From positions 1-52,358 of the forward strand of contig JBIOWP010000076.1 of NCBI GenBank assembly GCA_044868695.1: a DNA stretch of 52,358 nt, given 5' to 3'. A program made the translations under genes and the position numbers. Source of the stretch: a bacterium (GTDB lineage Bacteria; Sysuimicrobiota; Sysuimicrobiia; Sysuimicrobiales; Kaftiobacteriaceae). Under the pieces are notes generated by a model. The model was given only the letters and a program-made list of their open reading frames with translations. It was not told where the DNA came from and did not search any database. The number at the start of each line of letters is the position of its first letter. Position 1 is the stretch's first letter. Shown piece by piece: positions 4,777-32,985 of the stretch.

Positions 4777-4871
4777 ACGCATAGCCCTGGACCGGGGCTG
4801 ACAGCCTTCGTCTGCAGGGGTTGCCGGCCCCGGCACCGTATACCCTCGTAACCCCCTGGCCCGTCGAAGTC

Positions 4872-4888
4872 TACACGTGTAATACAAT
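4872..4888 (+). promoter_or_regulatory. 10-bp palindrome abutting a TACAAT -10 box
   Basis: TACACGTGTA (4872-4881, perfect palindrome), then TACAAT 4883-4888; GGAGGG RBS and ATG 4917 downstream. Confidence 0.35.
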
Positions 4889-4916
4889 GTCACGGACCAA
4901 AAATGCGGAGGGCAGC

Positions 4917-6557: not shown

Positions 6558-6579
6558 CCGCCGCGCCCCTCATCCGGCG

Positions 6580-7050
6580 TTGAGGCTGATCGTCTCCGGC
6601 TTCCTCGGCGCGGGATTCTTGGGCCCGCCGATATCGGCTCCTGGAGAATGCGCCGGCTCCTTGCCGGGGGGATACGCGATCGTATTGGAGTCTCTACCTC
6701 AACCCGTGGCGGTCGGCGCGACCCTCAGGTACTGCCTCTACGTCGGCTCGGCGGTCCGTACACTGGGCGTCAGCCTCCACGTCCGCTTCCACCTGCCGCC
6801 TGACACTGAGGTCTCGGGTAGCAGGGCCATAGGGTATCAGTGCCGCGTGGAGGCGGAGCGCCACGATGAATACCAGCGCGCGGCTCACCCGGATGTGGAC
6901 TGCATGAGCATCACCACCGGTGTGCCGTCCGGGGTGGTGAGTGTCTCAGCGGTTGCGCCCGCCAGTCCTGGCATGAAAGAGGCCTGCGCTGTCGTGAACG
7001 CAGGGAAGAATGATCACATCGTGTGCGCGCGGACGGTCGTCAGGCCTTAG
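6580..7050 (+). CDS. Exported hypothetical protein (Ig-like, DUF11-like)
   Basis: Hydrophobic N-terminus, PVAVGATLRYCLYV, paired Cys; fills the gap between two genes. TTG start uncertain. Confidence 0.45.
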   Translation: MRLIVSGFLGAGFLGPPISAPGECAGSLPGGYAIVLESLPQPVAVGATLRYCLYVGSAVRTLGVSLHVRFHLPPDTEVSGSRAIGYQCRVEAERHDEYQRAAHPDVDCMSITTGVPSGVVSVSAVAPASPGMKEACAVVNAGKNDHIVCARTVVRP

Positions 7051-8198
7051 GGGACAGAAGCGAACTGGATCCCTTCGATCTCAACCTGCGGCACTGCGCG
7101 CATGGGGTCGCGCCACCGGACGGTGACGCCCGACGCCGTCCCTGGCGAGATGCCCAGCGATATGATCTGGCGTTCGGCGCGGACCAGAGAATAGCCGTCC
7201 ACAATAACCCGCGCATGCGCGGCGCTGACAGGAAACCCCGCGTCGTCGGCGATCCAGACGCAGAGCAGATGCGAACTCGCCACGCCCTCCGGGACGACGG
7301 ATGCTTTGGCCTTGAGCCTGGACAGCACCAGTCCGTCGTAGAGCTCGGTTGGCACTGTGACCAACACTGCAGGGCGCGGCTCCTCAGGCCGGCGGCCTTG
7401 GTATTCCAGTACCTGAAGCCGGACCCAGATGGGCGGCGGTGCCGTGGGTACGTTGACGGCGAACTCTCGGAGATCGCCGGCCGCCAGGGCTTCCAGGGAA
7501 GTTCGGGTTGACGTCAGCTCGCGCCCGTTGATCCCGTACGCCGTGGCCTGCACCTGGATGCCGGCAATGTGCCGGTCGCTTTGGTTTGACAGTTCGCCGT
7601 CGACATGCACTGCGGCCCCTTCAAGAGAAAACGCCCAACTGGCGATCTCGACGACCGCATCGGCACCCTGCGACACGGGGACGGTCGGGCGGGCGACCCG
7701 AGATGGAGCCGGCGGTCTGGGACACTGGCTGGATGCTAGCCCGGGGGAGCGTGCTCCAGCTGCCTCTCCGAGTGCGGCCAGCCACGCCGAGGCGCTGGCG
7801 TCGTACTCGGTACCGGGCGCGACCGCCTTGGCGCGGGCGAAGGCCTCACGCGCCCGCACGGCGTCGCCCATCCGGGCGTACGTGATGCCCAGAAACAGGT
7901 GGGCGGCAGGGTTCTGAGGGGCGAGGTCGACTGCCCGCCGCAGGGCCTGCACGGCTTCCGGTAGCTGGTTGAGCTGCAGGTACGTCGCGCCCAGCCAGGT
8001 CCAGGTGACCGGATCCTCCGGCGCGTCCTGTGCTCCCAGGACGAACAACTGGAGTGCTTCCGCAAAGCGTCCGGCCTGATAGAGAGGTACCCCGCCCGTC
8101 GGGAACGGTTGCGCCGATGAACGGACGGCGACGGCCAGGAGGGCGCAGAGCAGACCCGCTGCGATGAAGAGCGCTTTTGGCCGGCCTGTCACGAACAT
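7047..8198 (-). CDS. Exported TPR-repeat protein with FxLYD-like Ig domain
   Basis: Signal peptide, about three TPR helix pairs (WTWLGATYLQLNQLPEAVQALRRAVDLAP), Pro-rich linker, VDGELSNQSDR..IQVQATAY. Confidence 0.8.
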   Translation of the reverse strand: MFVTGRPKALFIAAGLLCALLAVAVRSSAQPFPTGGVPLYQAGRFAEALQLFVLGAQDAPEDPVTWTWLGATYLQLNQLPEAVQALRRAVDLAPQNPAAHLFLGITYARMGDAVRAREAFARAKAVAPGTEYDASASAWLAALGEAAGARSPGLASSQCPRPPAPSRVARPTVPVSQGADAVVEIASWAFSLEGAAVHVDGELSNQSDRHIAGIQVQATAYGINGRELTSTRTSLEALAAGDLREFAVNVPTAPPPIWVRLQVLEYQGRRPEEPRPAVLVTVPTELYDGLVLSRLKAKASVVPEGVASSHLLCVWIADDAGFPVSAAHARVIVDGYSLVRAERQIISLGISPGTASGVTVRWRDPMRAVPQVEIEGIQFASVP

Positions 8199-8299
8199 GA
8201 CGCACCAATCGTTGAAGCAACTCCCAAACAGCAGGAAATGGAGGGGAAGTTCGGGACGCGTGCCAAAATCACCTATGAGTTGAAGATAAGGCGCTGAAC

Positions 8300-8977
8300 A
8301 TGATGAGAGTTCAAGAGCGGGCGGACGCGCTCGCGAGAGAGATGTTTGTCGGCGGTCCTGTGAAAGACTTCGAGGCTGTGGGCCGCCTTCAGCTCGTGAC
8401 GCTGATCCACCAGGGCCTGTATCCAGATTCGAAGGTCCTCGACGTCGGATGCGGGTGCCTGCGTGGAGGGTACTGGCTCATTCACTTTCTCGAACCGGGT
8501 TGCTATTTTGGCATCGAGCCAAACGCACGAATGCTGCAAGCAGGTATCGATCGAATCCTGGAGCCAGGCCTTATTGAAGAGAAACGTCCTCAGTTTCACA
8601 CTAACGAGAACTTCGATTTTTCTGTGTTTGGGACCAAGTTCAATTTCATCCTCGCCCGATCGATCTGGACCCATGCCTCAAAGGAACAGGTCCGAGTCAT
8701 GCTGGACTCGTTCCTTGATAGTTCAGAGGAAGAGGCTGCATTCTTGGCCTCGTATCGTCGGGCGGGCCTGCTACGCCGCGATTATCGAGGCGCGGAGTGG
8801 GTCGGGAGAAGCCACACGTCGGACGTCTCCGGAGGGGTTGCCCATAGCCTGCGGTGGATCCGCTCCGAGTGCCGCGGCCGCGGGCTATCGGTCACGGAGT
8901 TACCCGAGGGGATCTACAACCGGCAGGTATGGCTACGGATTGTCAGAGCCTCGAGGTCGCCCAGTGACATCCCGTAA
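8300..8977 (+). CDS. Class I SAM-dependent methyltransferase
   Basis: VLDVGCGCLRGG motif I, YFGIEP, FNFILARSIWTH. Confidence 0.88.
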   Translation: MMRVQERADALAREMFVGGPVKDFEAVGRLQLVTLIHQGLYPDSKVLDVGCGCLRGGYWLIHFLEPGCYFGIEPNARMLQAGIDRILEPGLIEEKRPQFHTNENFDFSVFGTKFNFILARSIWTHASKEQVRVMLDSFLDSSEEEAAFLASYRRAGLLRRDYRGAEWVGRSHTSDVSGGVAHSLRWIRSECRGRGLSVTELPEGIYNRQVWLRIVRASRSPSDIP

Positions 8978-10478
8978 TGTCTCTGTCGCCGCAAGAGGCG
9001 TGGTCGTGGCGCTAGGGGGCGTTATGACAGCTTCGGGATTGGGCTATCTCGCCACTATTGTGGCCGCAGGGAGTTTGGGCGCGAGGACCTTCGGTCTCTA
9101 CACGCTCGCGGTTTCCACCACTACAGCGCTTGCGGCAATGTCGTTGATGGCCGCCGACCGTGGGGTCCTCCGCTACGTCGCCATCCTTCGCGATTCGGGG
9201 AGTCACGCTCGGGAGCACGAGATCGTCCAGGCGACGATCGGGTGGACTCTGGTGACGTCGGCCGCTATGGCTGGCATCCTCTACGCCGCAGCCGGAATCC
9301 TGAGTACGCTTTTCAGGGACAACGGGGCGCTGGCCGCTTTGCTGCGTGTCGCCGCTCTCGTCATCCCACTGATGAATCTGCTGATAGTCCTCAACGCTGT
9401 GACCGATGCGCGCAAGGACATGCGCTACCGGGTGCTGACAAACGACCTGATCCGGAACGGATCGTTCCTCGCGTATCTTCTGGTCGGTCTCATGCTGGCC
9501 CGATTGACCGCCGCAGGCCTGACCTGGGCACTTGTCGTCTCTTATGCGCTGGCTGTTGCCGTCGCCCTCTGGGTGACGCGTGAAAACCTGAAAAGCGCCA
9601 GGTCCCTGGTTGCCTGGCGTTCCCTCACTCCTGTGTTGAAGTTCTCTGTCCCATTTCTGGCTTCTCAAGGGTTGAATCAAGCGGGAGCATATGTGATCAT
9701 CTTTCTCCTGGGGGTCATGGGTACCGCCCGCGACGTAGGGATGTTCAGCGCCGGCATGGCGCTTGCGGCTGGCGTCGGGCTGATTCTCGAAGCCATCTCG
9801 CGAATTTATGCGCCTATGGTGGCCGAACTGGTCGAGCGCAGGGACATGGGAGAGACTGAAGCGCTATTGCGTCACTTCACACGTTGGTCCATCATCTGGG
9901 GTAGCCCGTTTGTCGCTATCGCGATTCTCTTCCGCGAACCCGTCCTGGCTCTGGTGGGCGAAGAGTATGTAGCCGGCGGGCTAGCGCTGGCCGTACTGGT
10001 CCTCGGCCACGCGGTGAACGCGGCCACTGGACCGGTCGGGGTGGTCCTGGTCATGTCGGGACGTGCGTGGCTCAACGTTCTCGATCTCGCCGTGGCCCTT
10101 GGGCTGCGGATCGCACTCGGTATTTGGCTCATCGGGCGATACGGCGTCCTTGGCGCGGCAATCGTCAGCACGATTGCCTTGGCTCTGACCAATGTGCTGC
10201 GAGTTGCGCAGGTTGGCGTGGTCATGCGCGTATGGGGCTATGATTGGGGGGCCCTTCGGCCTGTGGCGGCAGTTGTGCCCGCCGGGATCCTGGGGGTGCT
10301 GGCTGCGACCCGCGTCCCAACGCCAGGCGCCCCCGTCCAACTCGTTCTCGGCAGCGTTGTGTTGCTGACTGTATATGGACTCGGTTTGCTGCTCTTCGGC
10401 CTTGATAGACAGGATTGGGAAGTCCTTCAGGCGGGGTTCCGGAGAGTCAGGCAGTTCGCCCGGCGTCCCATGGCCTGA
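8964..10478 (+). CDS. wzx: Wzx-type oligosaccharide flippase (MOP family)
   Basis: GAGGT RBS and GTG 8964; about 12-14 hydrophobic segments; LGARTFGLY, DVGMFSA, YGVLGAAI. Confidence 0.88.
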   Translation: MTSRNVSVAARGVVVALGGVMTASGLGYLATIVAAGSLGARTFGLYTLAVSTTTALAAMSLMAADRGVLRYVAILRDSGSHAREHEIVQATIGWTLVTSAAMAGILYAAAGILSTLFRDNGALAALLRVAALVIPLMNLLIVLNAVTDARKDMRYRVLTNDLIRNGSFLAYLLVGLMLARLTAAGLTWALVVSYALAVAVALWVTRENLKSARSLVAWRSLTPVLKFSVPFLASQGLNQAGAYVIIFLLGVMGTARDVGMFSAGMALAAGVGLILEAISRIYAPMVAELVERRDMGETEALLRHFTRWSIIWGSPFVAIAILFREPVLALVGEEYVAGGLALAVLVLGHAVNAATGPVGVVLVMSGRAWLNVLDLAVALGLRIALGIWLIGRYGVLGAAIVSTIALALTNVLRVAQVGVVMRVWGYDWGALRPVAAVVPAGILGVLAATRVPTPGAPVQLVLGSVVLLTVYGLGLLLFGLDRQDWEVLQAGFRRVRQFARRPMA

Positions 10479-10530
10479 TCGTGCTCAGTGCCTAGTCTGC
10501 CGGGCGGCGGATAATCTACTGAGGGGTCAC

Positions 10531-12141
10531 ATGGGGCGGGTCCTTATCATTGGAATCGATGGCGCGACCTGGCAACTGCTCGATCCGATGCTGGCTGCCG
10601 GGATGCTGCCGAACCTGCAGCGGTTGATAACCGCGGGAACCCGCGGCGTTGCGCTGTCGACTGAGCCGGCCGAAACACCAGTCGCCTGGGTGACCTTCCA
10701 GACGGGGGTCCCGCCGGAAATGCACGGCGTGTATGGATTCTACAACCTGTACGTCACACGCGGCCGACCGGAGTTCGTTGCGAATAGTTCGGCGTCGATT
10801 CGCATCAAGACCCTGTGGGAATACGCGGGGAATCTGGGCAAGCGCGTGGCGGTCATTTCATGTCCGATCACCTATCCCGCATACTCCGTGAACGGGATCA
10901 TGGTCCCCGGGTTCCCTGCTCCTTCGTCGCGGTGGACGAAGACCTATCCGCCGGCCTTGTGGAAGGAGATTGCCCAACTCGGGATCGGCTGGGTCGTGCC
11001 CGCCAGTCGACTCGATTCCTTCCCAAAGAGCGCATTCAAGAACGACGCTGACATGGCCGCCGCGCTGCGGCACCTGGCGGATCTGATGCGTGGTCGGGTG
11101 ACCCTCGCCTTGCATCTCCTCAACCGGCATCCCTGGGACCTCGGATTCTTTCAGTTCCAGGAGACCGATTGGGTCCAGCACGCCCTGTGGCCGTACCTGG
11201 CGGATGTTGCGAGCCATCCCAGTGGCATCCATCCGGCGCTGCGGGCATTCTACGGCGCCGTAGACGAGGGAGTCGGACAGCTGCTGCGGCTTGCAGGACC
11301 TGATGACCACATCGTACTTGTGTCCGACCATGGATTTCGCGCGTGCAAACGGGAAGTGTTCCCTAACCGCTGGTTGATGCAATGGAATCTCCTCGCTGAA
11401 CGACTGGGTCCACGTGACCGCCTGCTGGCGCTCATCAGCAATCTGCGCCACACTCTTGACTCTCGCGATCTTGTAGTCGGGCGCATTCCGCGGTCGATGC
11501 GGGCCCGACTGGCCAGTCGCGTGAACCTGTCCCGGATCGACACAGAACGGTCGTGCGCCTTCATGTTTGCCGATGGCTCGCCGACCGCGGGCTTGTTTTT
11601 CCTACGCTCCGAGGATGCGCGCAGTGATCACGAGACGGTGCTGGCTTTGCTCAGGGAACTGGCCGATCCGGACAATGGCGAGCGGATCATAGAGGCGATC
11701 ATTCCGCAGCCGCCCGGCGCAGCGGGCGGGAGCCCACACTACTGGGTGCGGTTCAGTCCTGGGTATGCGCCGATGGTCCGGTTCGGCCCAGGGCCGGTCC
11801 TTCGGTCGCGCGTACCCGGCCGGGACATCCAACTGGGGATCCACGATCCTGAGGGTATCTTCCTCGTCGCAGGCCCGGCAGTGCGGAGAGGTGCGACGGC
11901 CCCCAGGGCTTCGTTGATGGACATGGCCCCTACGATCCTCCACCTACTCGGGTTGCCAGTGCCCACATATATGCGAGGGAAAGTGCTCGCCAGCGTATTC
12001 GAGGAACCCGGGTATCGGGCCCGCCCTCCAGCGTATCTCGAAGACGATGGGAGTCGGACAGGTGGACCGCCGGGTGGACTGAGCGCGACCGACGAAGCCG
12101 ACATCACCCGCCGCCTCCGAGACCTCGGGTACGTCGATTGA
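10531..12141 (+). CDS. Alkaline phosphatase superfamily (type I phosphodiesterase/nucleotide pyrophosphatase-like) protein 1
   Basis: GAGGGG RBS; IIGIDGA, PAETPVAW (Thr nucleophile), ETDWVQH, SDHGF, GIH, C-terminal LRDLGY; no signal peptide. Confidence 0.88.
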   Translation: MGRVLIIGIDGATWQLLDPMLAAGMLPNLQRLITAGTRGVALSTEPAETPVAWVTFQTGVPPEMHGVYGFYNLYVTRGRPEFVANSSASIRIKTLWEYAGNLGKRVAVISCPITYPAYSVNGIMVPGFPAPSSRWTKTYPPALWKEIAQLGIGWVVPASRLDSFPKSAFKNDADMAAALRHLADLMRGRVTLALHLLNRHPWDLGFFQFQETDWVQHALWPYLADVASHPSGIHPALRAFYGAVDEGVGQLLRLAGPDDHIVLVSDHGFRACKREVFPNRWLMQWNLLAERLGPRDRLLALISNLRHTLDSRDLVVGRIPRSMRARLASRVNLSRIDTERSCAFMFADGSPTAGLFFLRSEDARSDHETVLALLRELADPDNGERIIEAIIPQPPGAAGGSPHYWVRFSPGYAPMVRFGPGPVLRSRVPGRDIQLGIHDPEGIFLVAGPAVRRGATAPRASLMDMAPTILHLLGLPVPTYMRGKVLASVFEEPGYRARPPAYLEDDGSRTGGPPGGLSATDEADITRRLRDLGYVD

Positions 12142-12153
12142 CGGTCGGCGCAT

Positions 12154-13302
12154 ATGGATGTGCGCACCGGTAGGCCCGGGCCAAAAATCGGCTTTGTGAT
12201 CAATGACTTCCTCGTCGGCGGGGCCGAGGTACTCTTGAGGGATCTCCTGGCGACAGCCCGCCGTCGTTCCAGGTCGGCCGACTGGTGTGTTGTCTACGCG
12301 CTTGATGGCGCAGGCCCCCTGAAGAAAGAGATTCAGGACCTGGGCTACCACATCGTCATCGTGGGGTCCTCGTGGCCATTCAATCCGATCGCCGTCTTCC
12401 GCTTTGCGCGCCGTCTTCGCAGGGACGGAATTGACATTCTCCATTGCCACTTGGCCCGATCGGGGGTGATTGGACGGATCGCGGCGCGCCTGGCAAGGGT
12501 GCCCGTCATTTACACCGAGCACAGCATGTGGGGACACCACCATCCTGTCACGCGGGTGCTCAACCAGCTCACGCTGCACTGGAACGTCAGGGTCATCACT
12601 GTCTCGGAGGCTGTCCGGCAGTATGTGCTGGGTCGGAGCCGCATTGCTCCCGGCAGGGTCATCACGATTCCCAACGGTATAGATCTCTCCAGGCTGGACG
12701 TCGCCTCCCTCGACGATGGGGGGGCCGTACGCAACAGCCTGCAGATCCCCGAGGGGGTCGTCGTGATCGGGACGGTGGGGAATATCAGCCGCGTCAAAGG
12801 CCACGCCTATCTGGTGCAGGCCCTGGCCGATCTTCAACGCCGCGGGCGGGCCGTCCACGGCGTCATCGTCGGGAGGGATCGGGGCGATCTTCCTTCGCTC
12901 CGGGAGCTGATCAATCTCCTCGGTCTTGAGCGTGCCGTGACGATTGCCGGTTTCCGGGAAGATATCCCGGAGGTGCTGCGCGTTTTCGACGTCTTTGTCT
13001 TGCCCTCCGTGCAAGAGGGGTTCGGGATTGCCCTGCTGGAAGCCATGGCGCTCCAGCGCCCGCTGGTCGTCTCCGCGGTCGGAGGCATTCGTGAAATCGT
13101 GCGGCATGAGGTTGAGGGTCTTGTGGTGCCACCGGCCAATAGCCGCGCGTTGGCCGACGCCATTGATATGCTGCTCACGCGTCCAGAGTGGGCCCGTCTT
13201 CTCGGCGAGCGTGCCCGCCAGCGAGTTTCGGCGGAGTTCTCCCTCGACCGCGTGGCGCAGCGATACCAGGAGGCCTACGCGCAGGTGTACGGGGTGGCAT
13301 GA
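12154..13302 (+). CDS. GT4 glycosyltransferase
   Basis: GGAE, YTEH, IPNGID, KGH, DVFVLPS and EGFGIALLEAM (EX7E). Confidence 0.93.
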   Translation: MDVRTGRPGPKIGFVINDFLVGGAEVLLRDLLATARRRSRSADWCVVYALDGAGPLKKEIQDLGYHIVIVGSSWPFNPIAVFRFARRLRRDGIDILHCHLARSGVIGRIAARLARVPVIYTEHSMWGHHHPVTRVLNQLTLHWNVRVITVSEAVRQYVLGRSRIAPGRVITIPNGIDLSRLDVASLDDGGAVRNSLQIPEGVVVIGTVGNISRVKGHAYLVQALADLQRRGRAVHGVIVGRDRGDLPSLRELINLLGLERAVTIAGFREDIPEVLRVFDVFVLPSVQEGFGIALLEAMALQRPLVVSAVGGIREIVRHEVEGLVVPPANSRALADAIDMLLTRPEWARLLGERARQRVSAEFSLDRVAQRYQEAYAQVYGVA

Positions 13303-14648
13303 CGGTCGACTGGCGGCTGGTCATCGGCTGGCTGGTCGAGGTGGGTGTGCTGACTTCAGTTCTCCTCGCGTCCCTGCGCCGCGTAGGAGATCGATCCCTT
13401 CTACTCCTCACGCTGGGTTCCTTCGCCCTGCGGTTGCTCATGGGCGAGGGCCTGTTCATGGTCAGCGCTCTCCGGCTGCCGCTGCTGGCCGACCTTCAGA
13501 TCCCCGGAGGCTTCTGGAAGTTCGGCCCTGATGCCCTCGGGTACCATCGAGAGGCGCAAACAGTCGCCGCGATATTGCGCGGTGCCCCGGCGGGCGTGGG
13601 CGTGACGGAATTGCTCGCATGGCCGGTCGGTGTGGTCTATTGGGTGTTCGGGGAGACTCTGGCCCACGCGCTCGTCCTCAACGCCGCGCTCGGGGCCGGG
13701 TGCGCGGCGCTGGTCTTCCTCACCGGACTGTGGGGAGGTCTCACGAGACGCGCTGCGATCCAGGCCGCAGCTCTTGTAGCCTTCTGGCCTTCGTCGTTCG
13801 CCTGGTCCGGCCAGCTCCTCAAGGAGCCGCTCGAGTGGTTCGGGATACTGGCCGTGTTCGCAGGGTGTGCAGGCCTGCTGCGAACCCGCCCAAGCGCGGC
13901 CCCTCCATTCTTCCTCGGCATGGTCGTCCTTATCGCCGGTGGAACGCATCTCGTCGGGGCGATACAGTTCTTTCAGGCCGCCACACTAACCGCAGCCATT
14001 GGGGCAGGGCTGTTGTTCTGGACCGCCTCTCGGCCCCGGCACTGCGTGATGCAGACGACGGCCAGCGCGGCGGTCGTGCTCCTGGCCATGGCCGCAGGCG
14101 GGTTCTCGGTTCTTCTGTGGCGTCCTTTTCCCCCGCCGCGGCCACTTGTGATGGAATCGGCGTGCCGGCCTGCCACCCCCCTGTTGCGCGTCCGTGAGGC
14201 GTATCGGATGTCCGGTGGCGCGACGCAGGTCGATCCAGGGGTGATTTTGCGCACCTGCGGTGATCTGATCCGGTACATTCCACGGAGCTTGAGCCTGGTC
14301 TTCATCGAACCACTCCCCCACTGGTGGGGCCCCGGCGCGTCCGTCGGGAGCGCGCGCTACCTCTCGGGTCTCGATGCCGTCCTCCTCTGGGTGTTGCTTC
14401 CTGGGTCACTGGCGGGGATTGTGCGGGCTGTGCGTCGGTCGGACGGAGGGAACGCGATCATCATGTTCTCGGTACTCCTCCTGGGGACGATCCTGGGGCT
14501 GATCGTCACGAACTTCGGTACCCTGTTTCGCCTCAGGCTGCAAATCTTGCTTCCGGCCGCGGTCCTCGCCGCCGACGGCTGGGATCTATTGCGTCGGGTG
14601 CGCCACGATTCAAGAGGTGACAGCAGGCCGAACGAGGAGGTACACTAG
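13299..14648 (+). CDS. Polytopic membrane protein, probable Wzy-like polymerase (GT-C)
   Basis: ATGA overlap with the GT4 stop; about 11 TM segments; PDALGYH, LLKE, NFGTLFRLR; sits in a Wzx locus. Confidence 0.6.
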   Translation: MTVDWRLVIGWLVEVGVLTSVLLASLRRVGDRSLLLLTLGSFALRLLMGEGLFMVSALRLPLLADLQIPGGFWKFGPDALGYHREAQTVAAILRGAPAGVGVTELLAWPVGVVYWVFGETLAHALVLNAALGAGCAALVFLTGLWGGLTRRAAIQAAALVAFWPSSFAWSGQLLKEPLEWFGILAVFAGCAGLLRTRPSAAPPFFLGMVVLIAGGTHLVGAIQFFQAATLTAAIGAGLLFWTASRPRHCVMQTTASAAVVLLAMAAGGFSVLLWRPFPPPRPLVMESACRPATPLLRVREAYRMSGGATQVDPGVILRTCGDLIRYIPRSLSLVFIEPLPHWWGPGASVGSARYLSGLDAVLLWVLLPGSLAGIVRAVRRSDGGNAIIMFSVLLLGTILGLIVTNFGTLFRLRLQILLPAAVLAADGWDLLRRVRHDSRGDSRPNEEVH

Positions 14649-14655
14649 GCTGGCT

Positions 14656-16005
14656 GTGTCTAGAAAACTTCTCATCATCGGCCTGGACTGTGTCCCGCCT
14701 GAGTTCGCGTTCCAACGGTTCGACATGCCTGCCCTCCGGTCTGTGATGCGGCGAGGCTCCTACGGTCTGCTGGAGAGCATCATCCCGCCCATCACTGTGC
14801 CCGCCTGGGCATCGATGATGACTGGCCAGGATCCGGGCGCGCTGGGAGTGTATGGTTTTCGCAATCGGACCGACCACACCTACGACCGGCTCAGTATTGC
14901 GACCAGCCAGGCTATCAAGGCCCCCGCGGTCTGGGACCGCTTGGCCGCGACGGGGCGGCAGTCGATCGTCGTCGGGGTTCCCCCATCGTATCCCCCGAAA
15001 CCCATCCAGGGGCAGATGGTGGGGTGCTTCCTCACGCCCAGCGCGAAGTCCGAGTACACGTGGCCGGGGGACCTGAAAGGCGAACTGGAAGACCGGTTTG
15101 GAGAGTACCTGTTCGACGTCACCGATTTCCGAACCGATGACAAGGCATCGCTGCTCCGGCGCATCTACGCTGCCTCCGAGCAGAAGTTTGCCATCGTGCG
15201 GCACCTCATGACCACTAAACCCTGGGACCTCCTCGCGTTCGTGGACATCGCGCCTGACCGCCTCCACCACGGGTTTTGGAAATACTGGGATCCCGAGCAC
15301 GTAAAGCACGAGCCAGGCAATCGATTTCAGAAATCGTTCGAGGAGTACTACGCGGTCCTGGACGGCCAGATCGGCAGCTTGTTGGATCTGGCCCCTGAGG
15401 ACGCCGCCGTCCTGATCGTGTCTGACCACGGGGCCAAGCGCATGGATGGAGCGATCTGCATCAACGAGTGGCTCCGGCGTGAGGGGTACCTGACGCTGAA
15501 GGAAACGCCGCGCGGCGTCCAGCGGCTGGAACCGGCCATGGTTGACTGGGGCCGCACCACCGCGTGGGGAGAAGGGGGTTACTACAGCCGGATCTTTCTA
15601 AATGTCCGAGGGCGGGAGCCTGAGGGAAAAGTGGACAAGGCCGGGTACGATCGCCTGCGCGAGGAGTTGATTCACGGACTGGAGAGTCTCGGCGACGAGC
15701 AGGGCCGGTCGATCGGGACCCGGGTCCACCGGCCGGAGGACCTCTATGCTGTTCGCCGCGGGATCCCACCCGATCTGATCGCGATCTTCGGCGACCTTTA
15801 CTGGCGCGGTGCGGGCAGTATCGGATTCGATTCGGTCTGGACGCACGAGAACGACACCGGCCCGGATGATGCGAACCATGCGCAGTACGGGATGTTTGTC
15901 GCGGCAGGGCTGCCCATGCCGCCCGGCGAGGTCAAGGGCCTCAAGTTGTTGCAGGTCGAGTCTGTTGTCGCCCAATATTTCGGACTGGAGTCACGACATG
16001 GATGA
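14656..16005 (+). CDS. Alkaline phosphatase superfamily (type I phosphodiesterase/nucleotide pyrophosphatase-like) protein 2
   Basis: IIGLDC, PPITVPAW (Thr nucleophile), PDRLHH, SDHG, DDANH; no signal peptide; stop overlaps the sat start. Start 14656 or 14617. Confidence 0.88.
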   Translation: MSRKLLIIGLDCVPPEFAFQRFDMPALRSVMRRGSYGLLESIIPPITVPAWASMMTGQDPGALGVYGFRNRTDHTYDRLSIATSQAIKAPAVWDRLAATGRQSIVVGVPPSYPPKPIQGQMVGCFLTPSAKSEYTWPGDLKGELEDRFGEYLFDVTDFRTDDKASLLRRIYAASEQKFAIVRHLMTTKPWDLLAFVDIAPDRLHHGFWKYWDPEHVKHEPGNRFQKSFEEYYAVLDGQIGSLLDLAPEDAAVLIVSDHGAKRMDGAICINEWLRREGYLTLKETPRGVQRLEPAMVDWGRTTAWGEGGYYSRIFLNVRGREPEGKVDKAGYDRLREELIHGLESLGDEQGRSIGTRVHRPEDLYAVRRGIPPDLIAIFGDLYWRGAGSIGFDSVWTHENDTGPDDANHAQYGMFVAAGLPMPPGEVKGLKLLQVESVVAQYFGLESRHG

Positions 16006-17722
16006 TAGGATCCCTCCGCATGGAGGTGTGCTGAAGCAGCTCGTGGCGGAGGATGAGGACCAGGTCGCCGCCCTCAAGGGGGAGGCGGTCCGGCTGCCCT
16101 CTTGGGATTTGTCCCCGCGCCAGGTCTTCGACATCGAACTGCTCCTGAACGGGGCGTTTTCTCCGCTCGACGGATATCTGGACCGGTCCAATTACGAGTC
16201 TGTTCGCGACAAGATGCAGCTGCGCGGGGGCGCGCTGTGGCCGATGCCGATCGTTCTGGATGTGACCGAGGAATTCGCCAGAAGCCTTCAGCGGCGGACG
16301 CGCATCGCGCTCCGGCATCCTGAGGGGATGGTCCTCGCCCTGATGACCGTGGCGGACGTATGGACTCCTGATCGAGGCCAGGAGGCGGAAGCGGTGTTCG
16401 GTAGTCGCGACGAAACGCACCCGGGGGTGTTCCAACTGTACCACCAGTTCAACCCGGTGTACGTCGGCGGTGCGCTCCAGGGGATCGAGCTGCCGCCGCA
16501 CCACACCTTCAAGCATCTCCGCCATACGCCGGCCGAGCTTCGGCAGCTGTTCCGCAAGCTGGGCTGGAAACGCGTCGTCGCCTTTCAGACACGCAACCCG
16601 ATGCACCGCGCCCATGTGGAACTCACGCGGCGCGCGGCCGCGGAGGCGGAGGCCAATCTGCTGCTGCATCCGGTGGTTGGGCGCACCAGGCCCGGCGACG
16701 TGGATTACTTCGTCCGGGTCCGCTGCTATCAGGCCGTGCTGAAGCACTACCCCGAGCAGACGACGATGCTAAGCCTGCTGCCACTGGCCATGCGGATGGC
16801 CGGGCCGCGCGAGGCGGTGTGGCACGCGATTATCCGGCAGAACTACGGCTGCACGCACTTCATCGTCGGCCGCAATCACGCCGCCCCCGGTCAGAACGCG
16901 CGGGGCGAGGACTTCTACTCCCCGTACGCGGCCCAGGAGCTGCTGAAGACGTATCAGAGGGACCTTGGAATTCAGGTGATGCCCTTCGAGGAGATGGCCT
17001 ACGTCGAGGATCTGGCGCAATATCTACCCCAGTCGGACATTCCTGAGCAGGCGAAGGTCCTCAGCCTGTCAGGGACCGAGCTGCGGCGGCGCCTCCGGGA
17101 AGGCCTGGAGGTGCCGGCCTGGTTCTCCTTCCCCGAGGTCGTGACGGAGTTGCGGCGGTCGTACCCTCCGCGATCACGGCAGGGATTCACCGTATTCTTC
17201 ACGGGACTGTCGGGGGCGGGAAAATCCACGATCGCCCAGATCCTGATGGCCAAACTGATGGAGATGGGAGACCGGCCGGTCACGCTGCTCGATGGAGACA
17301 TTGTCCGCAAGCACCTGTCCAGTGAGCTTGGATTTTCCAAAGAACACCGCGACATCAACATCAAGCGCATCGGGTTTGTGGCGAGCGAGATCACGAAGAA
17401 TCGCGGCATTGCCATCTGCGCACCGATCGCGCCGTACGCGGCGACCCGCCGGGAAGTGCGGGAGTTGATCAACGAATACGGCGCGTTCGTGGAAGTGTAC
17501 GTCTCGACACCGCTTGAAGTCTGCGAAGCTCGGGATAGGAAAGGATTGTACGCGAAGGCGCGGGCGGGATTGATCAAGAACTTCACCGGGGTTGACGACG
17601 TCTACGAACCGCCTCAGAACCCCGACGTGGTGGTCGATACGTCGACGCTCAGTCCCGAGGAAGCGGCGCATCAGGTCCTGCTGCACCTCGAGCGTCAAGG
17701 CTACATTAGCGCGCCGTCGTAG
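15998..17722 (+). CDS. sat/cysC: Bifunctional sulfate adenylyltransferase / adenylylsulfate kinase (PAPS synthase)
   Basis: GGAG RBS; GAFSPL, WPMPI, QTRNPMHRAH, MAGPREA, SGTELR; kinase GLSGAGKST, LLDGD, KGLY, FTGVDDVYE. Confidence 0.95.
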   Translation: MDDRIPPHGGVLKQLVAEDEDQVAALKGEAVRLPSWDLSPRQVFDIELLLNGAFSPLDGYLDRSNYESVRDKMQLRGGALWPMPIVLDVTEEFARSLQRRTRIALRHPEGMVLALMTVADVWTPDRGQEAEAVFGSRDETHPGVFQLYHQFNPVYVGGALQGIELPPHHTFKHLRHTPAELRQLFRKLGWKRVVAFQTRNPMHRAHVELTRRAAAEAEANLLLHPVVGRTRPGDVDYFVRVRCYQAVLKHYPEQTTMLSLLPLAMRMAGPREAVWHAIIRQNYGCTHFIVGRNHAAPGQNARGEDFYSPYAAQELLKTYQRDLGIQVMPFEEMAYVEDLAQYLPQSDIPEQAKVLSLSGTELRRRLREGLEVPAWFSFPEVVTELRRSYPPRSRQGFTVFFTGLSGAGKSTIAQILMAKLMEMGDRPVTLLDGDIVRKHLSSELGFSKEHRDINIKRIGFVASEITKNRGIAICAPIAPYAATRREVRELINEYGAFVEVYVSTPLEVCEARDRKGLYAKARAGLIKNFTGVDDVYEPPQNPDVVVDTSTLSPEEAAHQVLLHLERQGYISAPS

Positions 17723-17730
17723 CGTAACCG

Positions 17731-19332
17731 GTGACTGGTGACCGCTCGACCGCGTGGCTGCTCGCCGCGGCCGCCACATTGCTGCTGGCTGGTGCCCTCC
17801 TCCTTCCGCTGACGGACGGGGACACTGCCCTCTATGCCACGATTGCGCGAGATGCTCTCAGGGCCGGCGAGTGGGTTACGTTCTCGTTTCGGGATGGGCG
17901 GGTCTTCGATAAGCCGCCGCTCACGATCTGGCTGCTGCAGGTGTCCATCGCGCTCGCGGGATCGACGGAATGGGCTGTGCGCCTGTGGCACATCGCCTTT
18001 GCGTTTGCGACGGTGTTCGTGACCTATCGTCTCGCCCGCCTCGCGCTCCCGCCGGGTCAGTCACTATTTGCCGCGCTCGTCTTGCTGACGTCGGGGCAGT
18101 TCTTCTATCAAAGCCTCGTGCCCCAACAGGATGTTCCGCTGACGCTATTCGTCACACTGGCGTTGTACTGGTATTTGAGGTGGGAAACCGGCTGCGGCAC
18201 GCGGATGGCCGTCCTCGCCGGGATCGCTGCCGGGCTGGCGGTGCTGTCCAAGGGGATCGTCGGCGCAGTTATGCCCGCACTGATCGTTGCCGCTCACCTC
18301 GCCCTCAGCCGGCCGAAGTGGCCCCAGGGATGGGGACGGGACGCGGCGCTGAGCCTTGCTGCGCTGCTTCTGGTTGCCGCTCCATGGTTCGCCGCCGCGG
18401 GCCTGCGGCAGGGCAGGGCGTTTGTCGACACCTTCTTTCTCGGCGGCACGCTTGGGGTGGGACGGTTCTTCCGCCCCGCGCTCTCCGCGCCCGGCGGGAC
18501 GCCTGCCTGGTCGAGCTATCTCGCGTACGTGATCTTCTTGCCGCTCGGCATGCTGCCATGGACGGGCTGGCTGTGGGCCGGCCTGAGAGAGGGGTGGAAG
18601 GCCGTGCGTGCCGGCGGGCCTCCCGTGCTCAGGATCTGCGTGGTATGTGTCGGGGCGGTTGTCGTGTTCCTCACCATTTCACCCGGGGACAAAGTGATCC
18701 GATTTCTGCTTCCCGTGTTCCCGGCCGCCGCGGTGCTCGTCGCACATGCGGCTGCCGACGCTCGTTCGATGAAAACCGCGGGCCGGGTGTCGCTTTTCGC
18801 GGGAGGCCTCCTCGCGGCGGCGCTGGTCTGGGTGGTGGGGAGCCCGCTCCCGGCTGATGCGGCCGCGTATCTTCCCCTGGTGGAAGGATTTGTGCTTCCT
18901 CTCGCGGCCGCGCTGGTGGGGGCGGCCCTGATCGGGCGGCAGGGACGCGGACCTCAGGCAGTGCTGTTTCTGGCGGCCCTGACCCTCTTCGCGTATGGGC
19001 TCCTGATCACTGCGACCATCCGGCAGTGGGACCGCATTTCCCCGTGGCGTCCAATTGCGCGGGCGGTTGCCGCAGCCGTTTCGCCGGCCGCGCGGGTCGT
19101 GATCGTTGGTGAGCGGACACCGTTTCCTGAATTCTACATCAACCGTCCGGTCGAGTTCGTCGACCGTGCCGGGTTGCGGGACGCGTGGGGGTCCGGACCG
19201 GTCGTGGCGGTCGTGTCCGTGGATGCGCTGGCATCGCTTGCGCCTGGGCCCGCGCCGGCCGTCGTCGGCAGCGCGCCGGGCCGGCTATTGGTGATTAAGA
19301 ACTTCTCCGGCTTACCTCCCTCTCCCCCTTGA
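17731..19332 (+). CDS. ArnT/PMT-like GT-C glycosyltransferase
   Basis: DGDTALYATIAR, DKPPLTIW, LSKG, APWF, LPW; many TM helices. Confidence 0.85.
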   Translation: MTGDRSTAWLLAAAATLLLAGALLLPLTDGDTALYATIARDALRAGEWVTFSFRDGRVFDKPPLTIWLLQVSIALAGSTEWAVRLWHIAFAFATVFVTYRLARLALPPGQSLFAALVLLTSGQFFYQSLVPQQDVPLTLFVTLALYWYLRWETGCGTRMAVLAGIAAGLAVLSKGIVGAVMPALIVAAHLALSRPKWPQGWGRDAALSLAALLLVAAPWFAAAGLRQGRAFVDTFFLGGTLGVGRFFRPALSAPGGTPAWSSYLAYVIFLPLGMLPWTGWLWAGLREGWKAVRAGGPPVLRICVVCVGAVVVFLTISPGDKVIRFLLPVFPAAAVLVAHAAADARSMKTAGRVSLFAGGLLAAALVWVVGSPLPADAAAYLPLVEGFVLPLAAALVGAALIGRQGRGPQAVLFLAALTLFAYGLLITATIRQWDRISPWRPIARAVAAAVSPAARVVIVGERTPFPEFYINRPVEFVDRAGLRDAWGSGPVVAVVSVDALASLAPGPAPAVVGSAPGRLLVIKNFSGLPPSPP

Positions 19333-19358
19333 AGGGGGAGAGGGTTAGGGCGAGGGGG
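19317..19358. repeat. BoxC/REP-like hairpin repeat at a convergent gene junction; possible bidirectional terminator
   Basis: Perfect 12-bp inverted repeat CCCTCTCCCCCT (19318-19329) / AGGGGGAGAGGG (19333-19344). Minus strand reads CCCCCTCGCCCTAACCCTCTCCCCC, like the CCCTCACCCTAACCCTCTCCC repeat family. Confidence 0.7.
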
Positions 19359-21672
19359 TTCCACCCTCCTGCAGTAGTTCAATGACTGTCTCCGCGATTT
19401 TTTTCACGGCCCCGCGTCCGCCCATCCGCTGCCGTCCGGCCCGGCCCCGCGCCGCCCGTTCTGTAGGATCCTGCAGCAGCTTGACCACGACGCCGGCGGC
19501 ATCTTCCCAATCCCGTGCCGCCACCAGCGCCTCCCCGAGCAGGTCCTTCTGCAGGCGCACGAACTGCGAGGTCATCTGAGCGCCGGATCCGGGAAAGGTG
19601 ACTACCGGCTTGCCCAGTCCGGCCGCCTGCTCGTTCGCGGTCCCGGCCAGACCCACCACAACATCGGCCGCCGCCAGCGCATTCCCAAACGCGCGCGTCA
19701 GCGTTACGGTGATGCCATCGCGGCGCAGGACCTCGCCGGTGGGGGTCCACCCGATCTCCACGGCGACCGCTTTGACACGGTCAAGGTCGATCCCGGGAGC
19801 CAGCGCGCAGAAGAAGGCGGGCTGCAGGCGACCGGCAACCTGCTCGCAGAGTCGCAGGAGCGGTCTCACGTTCGCGTAGGCATCGACCCGGCTCCCGGGC
19901 AGCAGCGTTACGGCCGGCGTCACCCCATTGGAAAGCGCCGGTTCGGTTACACCAATCGTGTCCATCAGCGGATTGCCGACGAAGCGCGCAGGAAGGCCCA
20001 TGTCAGTGAGCGCGTCGGCCGTGACCTGGTCCCGTGCGAAGATGATCCGGGCGTAGCGGCGCATCGGGATCCGTTCCACCCAGCGGTGGCGCTCATTGTA
20101 TTCGGACTTCGCGGTCGCAACAAAGACTGCCGACGTGCCGGTCTGTGCGGCCATCGTCAGACAGTACACGTCACCGATGGCAATGGCGAGATCGTGTCTG
20201 CCGCGTTGCCCGCGGAGAGCGGCGCGCTGCGCACGCCAGTGCGACAGCGCACCTGCGCGGAGATCCGCCCACAGCGCCCGCCCGCGGAGTCCAAATCCTC
20301 CGGACGGGAACTCTCCCCGCGGGTCCAGCAGGGGAACACCGCGGTAGGCTCCGCCAGTCCCGACGAGCGGGTAGGCGGTGACGGTTGCCTGCCGCTGAAG
20401 CGTGGCCGCCAGCGCCATCCCGACGGCGTCTTCGCCGTGGCCGTTGCTGACCATGAGCACCGATGGGTTGGTGCGAGCGCGAGGTGAGGGGGCCCGGTCG
20501 GTGGGATCCGAAGCGGGCTTGGAGCCATTGATCATGAGCGCGCCAGCGAGCAGCCACAACCCCGCGCTGAGATGAACCGAGTTGATCGTGGCGTCAAACT
20601 GCTCGTGCACGAGGATACCGACGAAGGCCGCGAAGACCGCCGCGCTCATGAGGGTCTCATGCGGTGAACGAGCGGCCGTATGCCATCGCCATCCTGCTAC
20701 GAGCGCGAACAGGAGGATGGCGGCAAACGCGGCGAGCCCGAGCACGCCTCCTTCCGCCGCCATATTGAGAAAGATGTTGTGTGCGGACGAATGGGGCCGA
20801 AGCCGGGGAGCGGCGCGCGCCGTATAGCCAGGATGGACGAGAGAGAACGTATTCAGTCCCGTGCCGGTGATTGGATAGTTCGCGAAGATGGCGAGTGCGG
20901 CTTCGGCCAATACCACGCGAGTTTGATTCTCGCCAGGGTCGAAGACGCTGCGCAGGCGCCCGAAAATCCTGGAAGAATAGGGACCGGCCGCGAGCACCGC
21001 GACAACCACTGCGAGGAGTACCACCGCCACTCCCCGCCACGTGCGCCGGACCCCTGCCAGGACGAGGAGGAGGATGATCCCCGCACCATACGCGAACCAC
21101 GCGCCGCGCGAGTCTGTGCGCAGGAGCGCCAGGATCAGTGGAATCTGCCCCGCTGCGATCATCGCGCGGCTCGCGACCCCGCCTGTGCTCAGAAACTGGA
21201 GGCTCAACAGTCCGGCGACCAACAGTGTGGTCGCAAGGGAGTTGCGCTCCAGGAGGTACGGAATGTAGGGGGGCCGTCCGGTGGATTGCGCCACGGCGAG
21301 TCCCCAGGCCGCGGCCGCAATGCCGCCGACTACCCAGGCCCACAAGATGGGTTGGAGGAATCCTGGGTCACGCCGCAGCACCCGGAGCATTGTTCCGTAC
21401 CCGAGGTAGATGGTTAGGAGTGCCAGGACCAGTGAACCCAGCGCGGTGGTCCGATACGGAGACAGCACGCCAGAAATCGCGAAGGCCGCTCCAAACGCCA
21501 GAAATGGCGTGTCGAGCGGACTCCGCACCCAGGGAACGCGGCGCCCCGCAATCCCTTCCCAGACCGTCGCGGCCAAGAGGAGCGTCAGCCCGACAGCTCC
21601 GTACCCCGCAGAAAGTGCGAGGGCGGTGAACAGCAACGCACCACGCTGAAATCGGTCAAGCGTCGTGGGCAT
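19345..21672 (-). CDS. Fusion: O-antigen ligase (WaaL/Wzy_C) plus lipid-A-disaccharide-synthase-related GT-B domain
   Basis: N-half has TM helices with TDSRGAW, PITGTG and SAHNIFL. C-half has SNGHGED, GDVY, ATAKS, ARDQVTA, VGNPLMD, LLPGSR and AGTANEQAAGLGKPV. Start ATG 21672 overlaps the upstream GT2 stop. Confidence 0.85.
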   Translation of the reverse strand: MPTTLDRFQRGALLFTALALSAGYGAVGLTLLLAATVWEGIAGRRVPWVRSPLDTPFLAFGAAFAISGVLSPYRTTALGSLVLALLTIYLGYGTMLRVLRRDPGFLQPILWAWVVGGIAAAAWGLAVAQSTGRPPYIPYLLERNSLATTLLVAGLLSLQFLSTGGVASRAMIAAGQIPLILALLRTDSRGAWFAYGAGIILLLVLAGVRRTWRGVAVVLLAVVVAVLAAGPYSSRIFGRLRSVFDPGENQTRVVLAEAALAIFANYPITGTGLNTFSLVHPGYTARAAPRLRPHSSAHNIFLNMAAEGGVLGLAAFAAILLFALVAGWRWHTAARSPHETLMSAAVFAAFVGILVHEQFDATINSVHLSAGLWLLAGALMINGSKPASDPTDRAPSPRARTNPSVLMVSNGHGEDAVGMALAATLQRQATVTAYPLVGTGGAYRGVPLLDPRGEFPSGGFGLRGRALWADLRAGALSHWRAQRAALRGQRGRHDLAIAIGDVYCLTMAAQTGTSAVFVATAKSEYNERHRWVERIPMRRYARIIFARDQVTADALTDMGLPARFVGNPLMDTIGVTEPALSNGVTPAVTLLPGSRVDAYANVRPLLRLCEQVAGRLQPAFFCALAPGIDLDRVKAVAVEIGWTPTGEVLRRDGITVTLTRAFGNALAAADVVVGLAGTANEQAAGLGKPVVTFPGSGAQMTSQFVRLQKDLLGEALVAARDWEDAAGVVVKLLQDPTERAARGRAGRQRMGGRGAVKKIAETVIELLQEGGTPSP

Positions 21673-22570
21673 CGGTGTCCAACACTGCCTCAAGAGTACG
21701 GAGATAATGCCGGTTGAGTACACCGCGCAGCAACACGGAGGCCAGCGTCTGGCGCCGGCTCCGACGAAGGCGTTCCACGATGGATTCGACTGTCGCAGAA
21801 GTCAGGAGCCCACCTGCGGTCTGCAGCCAGTAGAGTATCCGGTGGACGGGCGTAGCTTGAATGAGCAAACGAGTCTCGAAGGTGGGATGCTTTCGGAAGA
21901 AGTACACCGCGCTCCGGGCGCGCGCCTCTTCTTTTTTCAGCAGGTCGGATACCGGCGCGCGCTGCTCCATCGGATCGACGTGAAACGCGACGGCTGCCCG
22001 GCAGAACACCCGCCTGATGCCGAGCTTCCTGAGCCGGAAGCCCAGATCGAAATCTTCCCAGCCGTACCCTGGGAACCCCTCGTCGAAGAGCCCCGCGCGC
22101 AGGAGCGCGGCCTTCTCCACTGTGACGTTCGCCGTGGTCAGGTAGGCCGGCGAACTCACGACTCGCGGCACCGGCCCGTTCCTCGCCCGGCTCACGTCAG
22201 GCACGTCGATCACGGGGCCCCGCGACAGGATGCCGGCGCCCTGCCGGCGGTGTGTCTGGAGATGAAGCTCCAGGAAGTCAGAGCGCACCAGAATGTCGCT
22301 GTCCACAAGGACGATCAAAGGGGCGCGGGCTTCGCGAATGCCCGCATTGCGCGCCGCGCTACGGCCCCGATTGGCCGGGAACCGGACCATCCGCACGGGC
22401 GGGCTGAACTGGGCCAGGACCGTGGCCGTCCCGTCCGTGGACCCGTCGTCGACGACGACAATCTCAAAGTGTTCGCCCGGCAGCGTTTGACGCGTCAGCG
22501 ATGCCAGGCATTCGTGAAGGAGGTCGGCCTGGTTGTAGGTGGGAATCACAACGCTGAGATCCGGATTCAC
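21656..22570 (-). CDS. GT2 glycosyltransferase
   Basis: SVVIPTYN, VVDDGSTD, ARNAG, DSD, FDEGFPGYGWED. Confidence 0.92.
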   Translation of the reverse strand: MNPDLSVVIPTYNQADLLHECLASLTRQTLPGEHFEIVVVDDGSTDGTATVLAQFSPPVRMVRFPANRGRSAARNAGIREARAPLIVLVDSDILVRSDFLELHLQTHRRQGAGILSRGPVIDVPDVSRARNGPVPRVVSSPAYLTTANVTVEKAALLRAGLFDEGFPGYGWEDFDLGFRLRKLGIRRVFCRAAVAFHVDPMEQRAPVSDLLKKEEARARSAVYFFRKHPTFETRLLIQATPVHRILYWLQTAGGLLTSATVESIVERLRRSRRQTLASVLLRGVLNRHYLRTLEAVLDTDAHDA

Positions 22571-22591
22571 GATTCACTATTCACGATTCAC
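22564..22591. repeat. Four tandem heptamers (G/T)ATTCAC
   Basis: GATTCAC GATTCAC TATTCAC GATTCAC; on the minus strand it spans the ABC transporter TGA stop and the GT2 GTG start. Confidence 0.85.
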
Positions 22592-25502: not shown

Positions 25503-25554
25503 TGTCGAACCACCTATGATGAGGGTCCGCAGCTGTGTCCCGGCATGTCTCTCG

Positions 25555-25560
25555 ATTATA
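25555..25560 (-). promoter_or_regulatory. -10 box TATAAT for the lpxB-like operon
   Basis: Perfect TATAAT on the minus strand in the divergent intergenic region, about 50 nt upstream of TTG 25502. Confidence 0.5.
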
Positions 25561-25597
25561 GTGTCCGCGACTGGGGTGGGTAAATGAGGCGACTGCG

Positions 25598-27085: not shown

Positions 27086-27087
27086 CG

Positions 27088-28482: not shown

Positions 28483-28489
28483 GTTTTCG

Positions 28490-32974: not shown

Positions 32975-32985
32975 CGGAGGGGCGT

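Follow-up and report, generated by a model that had tools for sequence, protein, structure and literature searches.

The closest described relatives of the system reported here are archaeal proteins with an alkaline phosphatase (AlkP) core. In Halobacterium salinarum, deletion of Agl30 (VNG1056C) and Agl31 (VNG1057C) removes glycan sulfate, and their expression in Haloferax adds it (PMC11980604); Agl7 (HVO_2046) of Haloferax volcanii is needed to sulfate a lipid-linked hexose (PMC3892788). Papers are cited throughout from the portions of their text that were available, and that of PMC11980604 holds no donor, loader, tail, mechanism, or in vitro assay and zero occurrences of PAPS (3'-phosphoadenosine 5'-phosphosulfate). 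We analyzed contig JBIOWP010000076.1 (C76; 52,358 nucleotides, hereafter the window) of a 2.59-Mb, 95% complete genome, G000, from the bacterial phylum Sysuimicrobiota. A tightly packed run on its plus strand encodes, in order, a methyltransferase, Wzx, AlkP-1, a family 4 glycosyltransferase (GT4), a GT-C-like membrane protein, AlkP-2, a fused ATP sulfurylase–APS kinase (Sat-CysC; APS, adenosine 5'-phosphosulfate), and an ArnT-like protein. Like Agl30, Agl31, and Agl7, AlkP-1 and AlkP-2 are AlkP-core proteins of a glycan cluster, although the archaeal product is an N-glycan and that of this operon would be a bacterial Wzx polysaccharide. The archaeal proteins are sulfatase-like according to PMC11980604, as are three proteins (PF00884) on contig C56 of G000, whereas AlkP-1 and AlkP-2 resemble nucleotide pyrophosphatases/phosphodiesterases (NPP; PF01663).

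P-loop sulfotransferases (PF00685, PF13469, TPST) and the beta-propeller ASST catalyze the same overall reaction as that proposed below on unrelated folds. Aryl sulfate donors and a covalent intermediate are features of ASST as well. The available part of a review that recognizes four sulfotransferase subclasses includes no alkaline phosphatase type, and the term itself has zero occurrences there (PMC11625862). A different precedent comes from PatA/PatB, DltX/DltB/DltD, and OatA: a loader charges an invariant Tyr close to the C-terminus with an activated group, which then passes to a Ser/Thr enzyme acting on an envelope polymer, and in PatA and DltX the transport of acyl groups on a C-terminal Tyr is proven (PMC12148441). 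The tail of AlkP-1 belongs to a set in which 145 of 147 members keep this Tyr, its entry into the active site of a partner being a predicted contact. The acyl systems are transmembrane and of MBOAT and SGNH folds, whereas the operon encodes two soluble, likely cytoplasmic AlkP-fold enzymes with a putative sulfuryl intermediate. In Pyrococcus yayanosii, pych_17520–17560 reads copG-sat-pApase-phosphodiesterase-cysC, in a genome for which the available text gives no known sulfotransferase or sulfite reductase (PMC8268124); the PF01663-type gene of the cluster, between sat and cysC, is likened to AlkP-2 by gene order. That paper classes the cluster under assimilatory sulfate reduction and guesses at pyrophosphate (PPi) hydrolysis.

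We consider it highly probable that AlkP-fold Thr enzymes sulfate a glycan, for which archaeal precedent exists. As to route, we lean slightly toward a tyrosine relay by which the operon would build a sulfated surface polysaccharide: PAPS to AlkP-2 Thr47, to the tail Tyr, to AlkP-1 Thr49, to sugar. The features central to this reading are as follows.

10531..12141, plus strand: AlkP-1, 536 amino acids, long and tailed (PF01663, 115 bits)
10675..10677, plus strand: AlkP-1 Thr49 codon, predicted nucleophile (aligns with a PhnA Thr)
12076..12141, plus strand: C-terminal acidic helix of AlkP-1 (the tail), ending RLRDLGYVD; Tyr534 codon at 12130–12132
14656..16005, plus strand: AlkP-2, 449 amino acids, short and tail-less (PF01663, 146 bits)
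14794..14796, plus strand: AlkP-2 Thr47 codon, predicted nucleophile (aligns with a PhnA Thr)
15998..17722, plus strand: fused Sat-CysC (NF004040, 919 bits)

Fold and active site of two AlkP paralogues

AlkP-1 and AlkP-2 are paralogues, both matching PF01663 against a cut-off of 23 bits. Their predicted structures (predicted local distance difference test, pLDDT, 89 and 95, respectively) adopt the NPP/PhnA fold, as judged from the top Foldseek and VIA-align matches; the AlkP-1 model was built on P0121, which has Val where the window encodes Met64. The closest solved fold is Xac NPP (Z 29.8, root-mean-square deviation 3.0 over 333 residues). Xac NPP, ENPP4–7, and PhnA share the fold, the two-metal ligand set, and the Thr nucleophile, but they are phospho-hydrolases of 11–17% identity and carry no tail. 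AlkP-2 residues D11, T47, D201, H205, D257, H258, and H408 are invariant in 80 of 80 alignment rows, and the corresponding D10, T49, D213, H217, D266, H267, and H438 of AlkP-1 are conserved, with D213, H217, D266, and H267 kept in 42 of 42 rows and position 49 occupied by Thr (30 rows), Ser (11), or a gap (1). By analogy to NPP, these residues presumably act as the ligands of two metals.

In alignments, Thr47 and Thr49 match the Thr of PhnA for which chain 3t02 has Ala, and the (C/S)-x-P-x-R motif is absent from AlkP-1, AlkP-2, and the C56 proteins; formylglycine cannot come from Thr (PMC5066984). An earlier note on this DNA, which had named a Thr nucleophile in place of the sulfatase motif, was thus right. 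It had also described both proteins as lacking signal peptides, which agrees with the absence of any hydrophobic segment (Kyte-Doolittle maxima 1.26 for AlkP-1 and 1.09 for AlkP-2; no dedicated signal-peptide program was run) and with both proteins starting directly at the first core strand. Its choice of EptA and LtaS as models did not survive: we rejected an identity of that type given the missing hydrophobic segment or membrane domain and an NCBIfam search in which a weak PhnA match was the only one for the pair. Neither protein matches PF00884, and NPP/PhnA and Agl30/Agl31 are the closer models.

AlkP-2 is short and conserved (52–76% identity over 80 rows), whereas AlkP-1 is longer and variable (32% mean column identity). 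Named records closest to AlkP-2 carry the title Armatimonadetes CSP1-3, and the AlkP-2 family is large, with at least 7,999 of 8,000 scored candidates matching at E ≤ 1e-20. A tree of 87 rows (28 AlkP-2 rows drawn at random plus the named ones, midpoint root) sets AlkP-2 apart from long tailed and short Ser-type clades; because the root is untested, we claim no order of origin. The Ser-type clade is a second group of short, tail-less proteins, with Ser at the nucleophile position (L137–L141, L018, L029, L053, L073, L135, L143, L144). Its genes adjoin sat, a CysD-like gene, or a pyrophosphatase, and the proteins are possibly APS-using loaders. Their long partners end in KLKGWGY in one clade.

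AlkP-2 and sulfate activation across genomes

G000 has a single Sat (PF01747) and a single CysC (PF01583) match, making Sat-CysC its only detected PAPS source. Genome-wide searches returned neither PF01507 (cysH) nor PF01077 (sulfite reductase), leaving PAPS without a detected assimilatory outlet. In the window, no cysH/cysI or sulfotransferase family was matched among the 48 open reading frames (ORFs) scanned (of 195 with at least 90 amino acids), and a six-frame P-loop motif scan gave five matches, none within 8300–17722. The earlier note's statement that cysH and cysI are missing from the window therefore holds and extends to the genome; its parallel statement on sulfotransferases holds for the window but fails for the genome, which encodes one PF13469 protein on contig C5. 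For PF03567 (0 of 17) and PF09037 (0 of 5), no control genome matched, so no absence is shown. PF00459 and two DHH proteins are encoded in G000 as putative clearers of PAP (3'-phosphoadenosine 5'-phosphate). A second AlkP-2, 75% identical, lies at C56:43203–45486 (L002) and adjoins a TauE/SafE permease and an NAD-dependent epimerase.

The note had also proposed profiling the AlkP clades against cysC and sulfotransferases. The phylum has 80 genomes that are at least 80% complete; of these, 24 have cysC and 14, in three families, have AlkP-2 (13 full-length orthologues at >400 bits, with a clear gap down to 175, plus one added contig-edge fragment). AlkP-2 adjoins cysC in all 14, with 28–261 nucleotides (nt) between the matches in the 13 relatives of G000. 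Ten genomes have cysC without AlkP-2: seven carry a strong cysH match ~1 kb from cysC, and the remaining three have 10–26 PF13469 matches each. A strong cysH match was found in 0 of the 14 AlkP-2 genomes, five of which show unlinked matches of 22–27 bits, and neither PF13469 nor PF00685 was detected in 8 of the 14. G030, which has the same operon, has no PF13469, PF00685, or PF14269 match.

The association recurs in a second phylum (131 genomes, the center of the sample having been picked for its AlkP-2), where AlkP-2 occurs in 17 genomes and cysC in all 17 of these versus 54 of the 114 others; AlkP-2 is adjacent to cysC in 4 of the 17. From a genome collection we took the 80 best AlkP-2 loci, in 17 of which sat or cysC lies no more than 3 kb away. 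Among 50 genomes without cysC at the AlkP-2 locus (50 of 77 loci wanted; no background rate), 47 have cysC elsewhere. A canonical sulfotransferase lies in 2 of the 80 loci, a weak count from a single query. All-versus-all ORF clustering across these loci went unused, because wrong-frame ORFs, abundant in high-GC DNA, dominated it. One unpublished genome (G245, locus L066) contributes one row each to the 50-genome cysC count, the 80-locus counts, tail alignment A3, and the tree. Because kin are not independent in any profile, nominal p values overstate. Together with the precedent of Agl30/Agl31, gene neighbors and genome profiles indicate that the AlkP enzymes are likely PAPS consumers in glycan sulfation.

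The RLxxLGY tail and its predicted partner

AlkP-1 terminates in DEADITRRLRDLGYVD. In its model, a helix (519–531) follows a low-confidence linker (513–515), and the tail motif consists of this acidic helix plus RLxxLGY. Among 89,499 stop-ended frames of G000, five end in the motif, and four of these are AlkP-1 and the three C56 proteins, all AlkP-fold and from glycan loci. The C56 glycan cluster (6577–17941; L005–L008) encodes three PF00884 sulfatase-like proteins in which Thr (PWTVPSH) replaces the formylglycine motif. All three carry the tail, are likely further clients of AlkP-2, and come closest in likeness to Agl30/Agl31. Translated cloning primers give the ends of Agl30 and Agl31 as HLEDLGYL and LEELGYT (PMC11980604), so that the LxxLGY end, known for these two from primers alone, is common to AlkP-1 and the three C56 proteins, whereas AlkP-2 is without it. 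A primer for VNG1063H, which has no sulfation phenotype in the available part of PMC11980604, ends KELGYIE. The published VNG1056C primer had 0 matches in metagenomes.

At related loci the tail ends 21 of 31 AlkP-1-like ORFs, 19 of 25 sulfatase-like ORFs, and 11 of 15 CysC ORFs (two of these being the natural CysC end), versus 2 of 80 AlkP-2; fused tails occur in 14 of the 120 closest AlkP-2 relatives. A 28-position profile (E ≤ 1e-4) matched all 14 AlkP-2 genomes of the phylum versus 2 of 66 others, both on short or edge contigs. Its training rows include tails from 4 of the 14; the other 10 matched too. In the second phylum, the profile found tails in 9 of 17 AlkP-2 genomes, rising to 13 of 17 after reading of the loci. 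When the last residue was ignored in the search, the 147 distinct tails retrieved carried Tyr in 145, Val in 1, and Pro in 1, with no Phe, Trp, or His, whereas all seven other Tyr-majority columns in the AlkP-1 alignment do show such swaps.

We modeled AlkP-2 together with two Zn and the C-terminal 38 residues of AlkP-1. The complex scored 0.93 versus 0.02 for the best control; of solved pairs, 116 of 157 attain the score mark, and of mismatched pairs 2 of 215, figures that apply to this complex only roughly. Runs share at least 72% of contacts, with a partner pLDDT of 66. Tyr534 is predicted to sit on Thr47, contacting Ile46 and Thr47 of AlkP-2 at an expected error of 1.1 Å, and invariant AlkP-2 residues make up 17 of 35 positions at the tail contact surface versus 58 of 414 elsewhere. 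Searches of the tail against Pfam, NCBIfam, and solved chains gave no notable family and no chain (the end of APS kinase chain 7yq0 matches at E 0.91, not significant); because no solved chain resembles it, the model is unlikely to echo a similar known complex. It supports tail binding, and it shows neither chemistry nor direction.

Several further arrangements of the tail were observed. In CysC of L053, L073, L024, and L029, it follows the natural last APS kinase helix (e.g., RKLKELDYL ... ERLRSLGYI); resembling a tandem copy of that helix, the tail may have arisen from it. An archaeal genome (G267) has an RHH(tail)-AlkP-2-sat-cysC(tail) run (RHH, ribbon-helix-helix). On a Halopiger xanaduensis plasmid (L144:6697–8886), a tailed CysD-like protein lies beside a CysP-like permease and a short AlkP, along with a tailed AlkP, sulfatase-like genes, and GT4s, the same logic as in the operon. 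The tail is internal in AlkP fusions to tetratricopeptide repeats (P0165, P0169, P0171, P0173, P0182), and the related fusions P0169, P0177, and P0178 add a PF13469 domain that could be an alternative loader.

A proposed tyrosine relay, its rivals, and its meaning

AlkP-2 is conserved, cysC-linked, and tail-less and AlkP-1 variable and tailed, a division that favors a two-step relay over parallel transferases. Sat-CysC would make PAPS, from which AlkP-2, as loader, would take the sulfuryl group onto Thr47 and hand it to Tyr534 in the RLxxLGY tail of AlkP-1. The tail would then swing into the active site of AlkP-1 itself, where Thr49 would take the group, and AlkP-1, as the proposed acceptor-specific enzyme, would transfer it to a sugar in the lipid-linked repeat, ahead of flipping by Wzx. 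One conserved loader could serve all tailed enzymes of the cell, here including the three C56 Thr proteins. The chemistry and its direction, the choice of PAPS over APS as donor, the acceptor, and the timing are our inferences. The earlier note had both AlkP enzymes moving sulfate from PAPS to the glycan; their role as PAPS consumers is likely, but they do not appear equivalent. It also called the candidate sulfation system non-canonical, but AlkP-fold glycan sulfation has precedent in Agl7, Agl30, and Agl31. The remaining genes of the run are as follows.

8300..8977, plus strand: S-adenosylmethionine-dependent methyltransferase, accessory (PF13489, 21 bits, E 2.8e-4, under the cut-off)
8964..10478, plus strand: Wzx-type flippase, start uncertain at 8964–9024 (PF01943, 37.7 bits; ~10 hydrophobic segments)
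12154..13302, plus strand: GT4 glycosyltransferase (PF00534/PF13439)
13299..14648, plus strand: polytopic membrane protein, GT-C/PMT-like by ESM Atlas (Wzy polymerase or GT-C transferase)
17731..19332, plus strand: ArnT-like GT-C membrane glycosyltransferase, last of the run (PF13231, 68.7 bits; same position in G030)

The tight packing from the methyltransferase to sat-cysC and the overlap of AlkP-2 with the sat start (8 nt) were correctly seen before; the ArnT-like gene, 8 nt beyond Sat-CysC, had been missed. Of the parts of a Wzx/Wzy locus, Wzx and GT4 are matched and the polymerase candidate is GT-C-like: an assignment as Wzy-like is plausible but unproven, the protein having no Pfam match, with ESM Atlas neighbors at 0.98 that carry PF13231 in 12–71% of members. 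Glycan methylation, which had been put forward as part of the product, is no core feature, since the methyltransferase was not found in the syntenic G030 operon. At its position G030 encodes a PiT/CysP-family transporter (L089:563–1684). Promoter and terminator scans gave chance-level results. Downstream (19345–35750) lie further envelope genes that may supply precursors of the operon: an O-antigen-ligase/TIGR03492 fusion, a GT2, an ABC exporter, an LpxB-like protein, a phosphomutase, two epimerases, a GT4, a nucleotide-sugar dehydrogenase, a WecA-like protein, and a nucleotidyltransferase. The gene at 4821–6557 encodes a 578-residue, secreted-looking protein that repeats SxDxGxTF/W motifs and is unmatched in Pfam.

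Several observations weigh against the relay. NPP-fold enzymes normally attack phosphorus, and passing sulfate from Thr to Tyr requires that a metal activate Thr as the leaving group. The pose may mirror binding of the tail to the active site of AlkP-1 itself, since the two enzymes are paralogues, and it comes from a single complex model built on our own alignments, in which 10 of 80 AlkP-2 rows have a fused tail beyond the modeled columns. Why CysC, a CysD-like protein, small RHH-like proteins, and one epimerase, all of which terminate in the tail too, should carry sulfate is not obvious. Of the 17 AlkP-2 genomes of the second phylum, 4 yielded no tail, and tails occur in 9 of 114 AlkP-2-negative genomes; in each of the five of those nine that were examined, one run combines sat and a flippase with a divergent short Ser-type AlkP and a long WGY-tailed AlkP, and four of the five also carry canonical sulfotransferases. 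Six of the 14 AlkP-2 genomes in the first phylum, including G000, have a canonical sulfotransferase, which in G013 lies ~2 kb from AlkP-2; the G000 enzyme is at C5:14992–15687 (L001; PF13469, 50.7 bits). Haloferax volcanii was unmatched for APS kinase and Sat in control lists, so the donor in that species could be something other than PAPS.

Tails on CysC, the CysD-like protein, and small RHH-like proteins would be expected if the tail is only a docking tag, gathering CysC, regulators, and transferases or parking in the active site as a pseudo-substrate, while AlkP-1 and AlkP-2 each sulfate directly from PAPS through a sulfo-Thr. Both enzymes keep the full two-metal site, and all gene-neighbor evidence for sulfation fits this account equally well. 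We nevertheless regard it as unlikely: none of the 147 tails swaps Tyr for Phe, the model places Tyr on the nucleophile and not on a side surface, and the window's Sat-CysC has no extra tail whereas the syntenic G030 CysC has one, making tethering of CysC dispensable.

The NPP and PhnA folds are those of hydrolases, and PMC8268124 speculates on PPi hydrolysis for PYCH_17550. AlkP-2 might accordingly be a housekeeping hydrolase of PAP, PAPS, APS, or PPi, with AlkP-1 adding or removing a phospho-substituent, or a nucleotidyl group might be moved. This appears distinctly improbable. PAP could be cleared by the PF00459 and DHH proteins of G000, their substrate being putative, and a proven pApase is encoded separately in the Pyrococcus cluster. 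AlkP-2 is missing from the three genomes with the most canonical sulfotransferases, enzymes that generate PAP, and eight AlkP-2 genomes would produce PAPS without a detected consumer.

Stand-alone tailed proteins, one with a weak PF01402 match (E 0.011), head sat/cysC operons in seven phylum relatives and two archaea, and the Pyrococcus cluster opens with a putative CopG factor (PMC8268124). These would suit an AlkP-2 that is a tyrosine sulfotransferase whose mark on an RHH repressor, CysC, and transferases is regulatory, the glycan being sulfated directly from PAPS. We give this little credence, as every acceptor-type enzyme has its tail on a flexible linker and G000 encodes no stand-alone tailed protein.

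That the C5 enzyme performs the sulfation with the AlkP genes as passengers is hardly credible: it must draw on the window's Sat-CysC, itself 75–77% identical to those of sulfotransferase-rich relatives, but it sits in its own wzx/glycosyltransferase cluster, beside pilin-like genes, and G030 keeps the operon without any such match. Both sulfation routes seem to operate in the cell, supplied by one Sat-CysC. The latter shares only 37%/52% identity with the split sat and tailed cysC of G030 (L089:9972–11847), a pattern that, set beside the 75–77%, suggests replacement in place.

Beyond this operon, we see roughly even chances that the relay reflects a widespread bacterial and archaeal system in which an AlkP-fold, PAPS/APS-dependent tyrosine sulfotransferase loads a 20-residue tail, the donor arm of thousands of proteins. 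No description of the relay or the tail motif was found in the literature searched, which included few subscription papers and no supplements. If the system exists, its clients would be proteins annotated as "alkaline phosphatase family," "phosphodiesterase," or "sulfatase-like," Agl30 and Agl31 included, and the tail would be a sulfotransferase tag. It would name the missing PAPS consumer where neither cysH nor a P-loop sulfotransferase is present (8 of 14 genomes here); the PAPS consumer of Pyrococcus is likewise an open point in the available part of PMC8268124. The relay also offers a one-residue test of the Agl30/Agl31 mechanism, left open in that of PMC11980604. Soluble enzymes comprising one loader and many acceptor-specific partners could help make defined sulfated glycans. 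If true, the relay would carry the tyrosine-shuttle principle beyond acyl groups to sulfuryl groups, bring a further fold to the sulfotransferases, and lead to the re-annotation of a large family.

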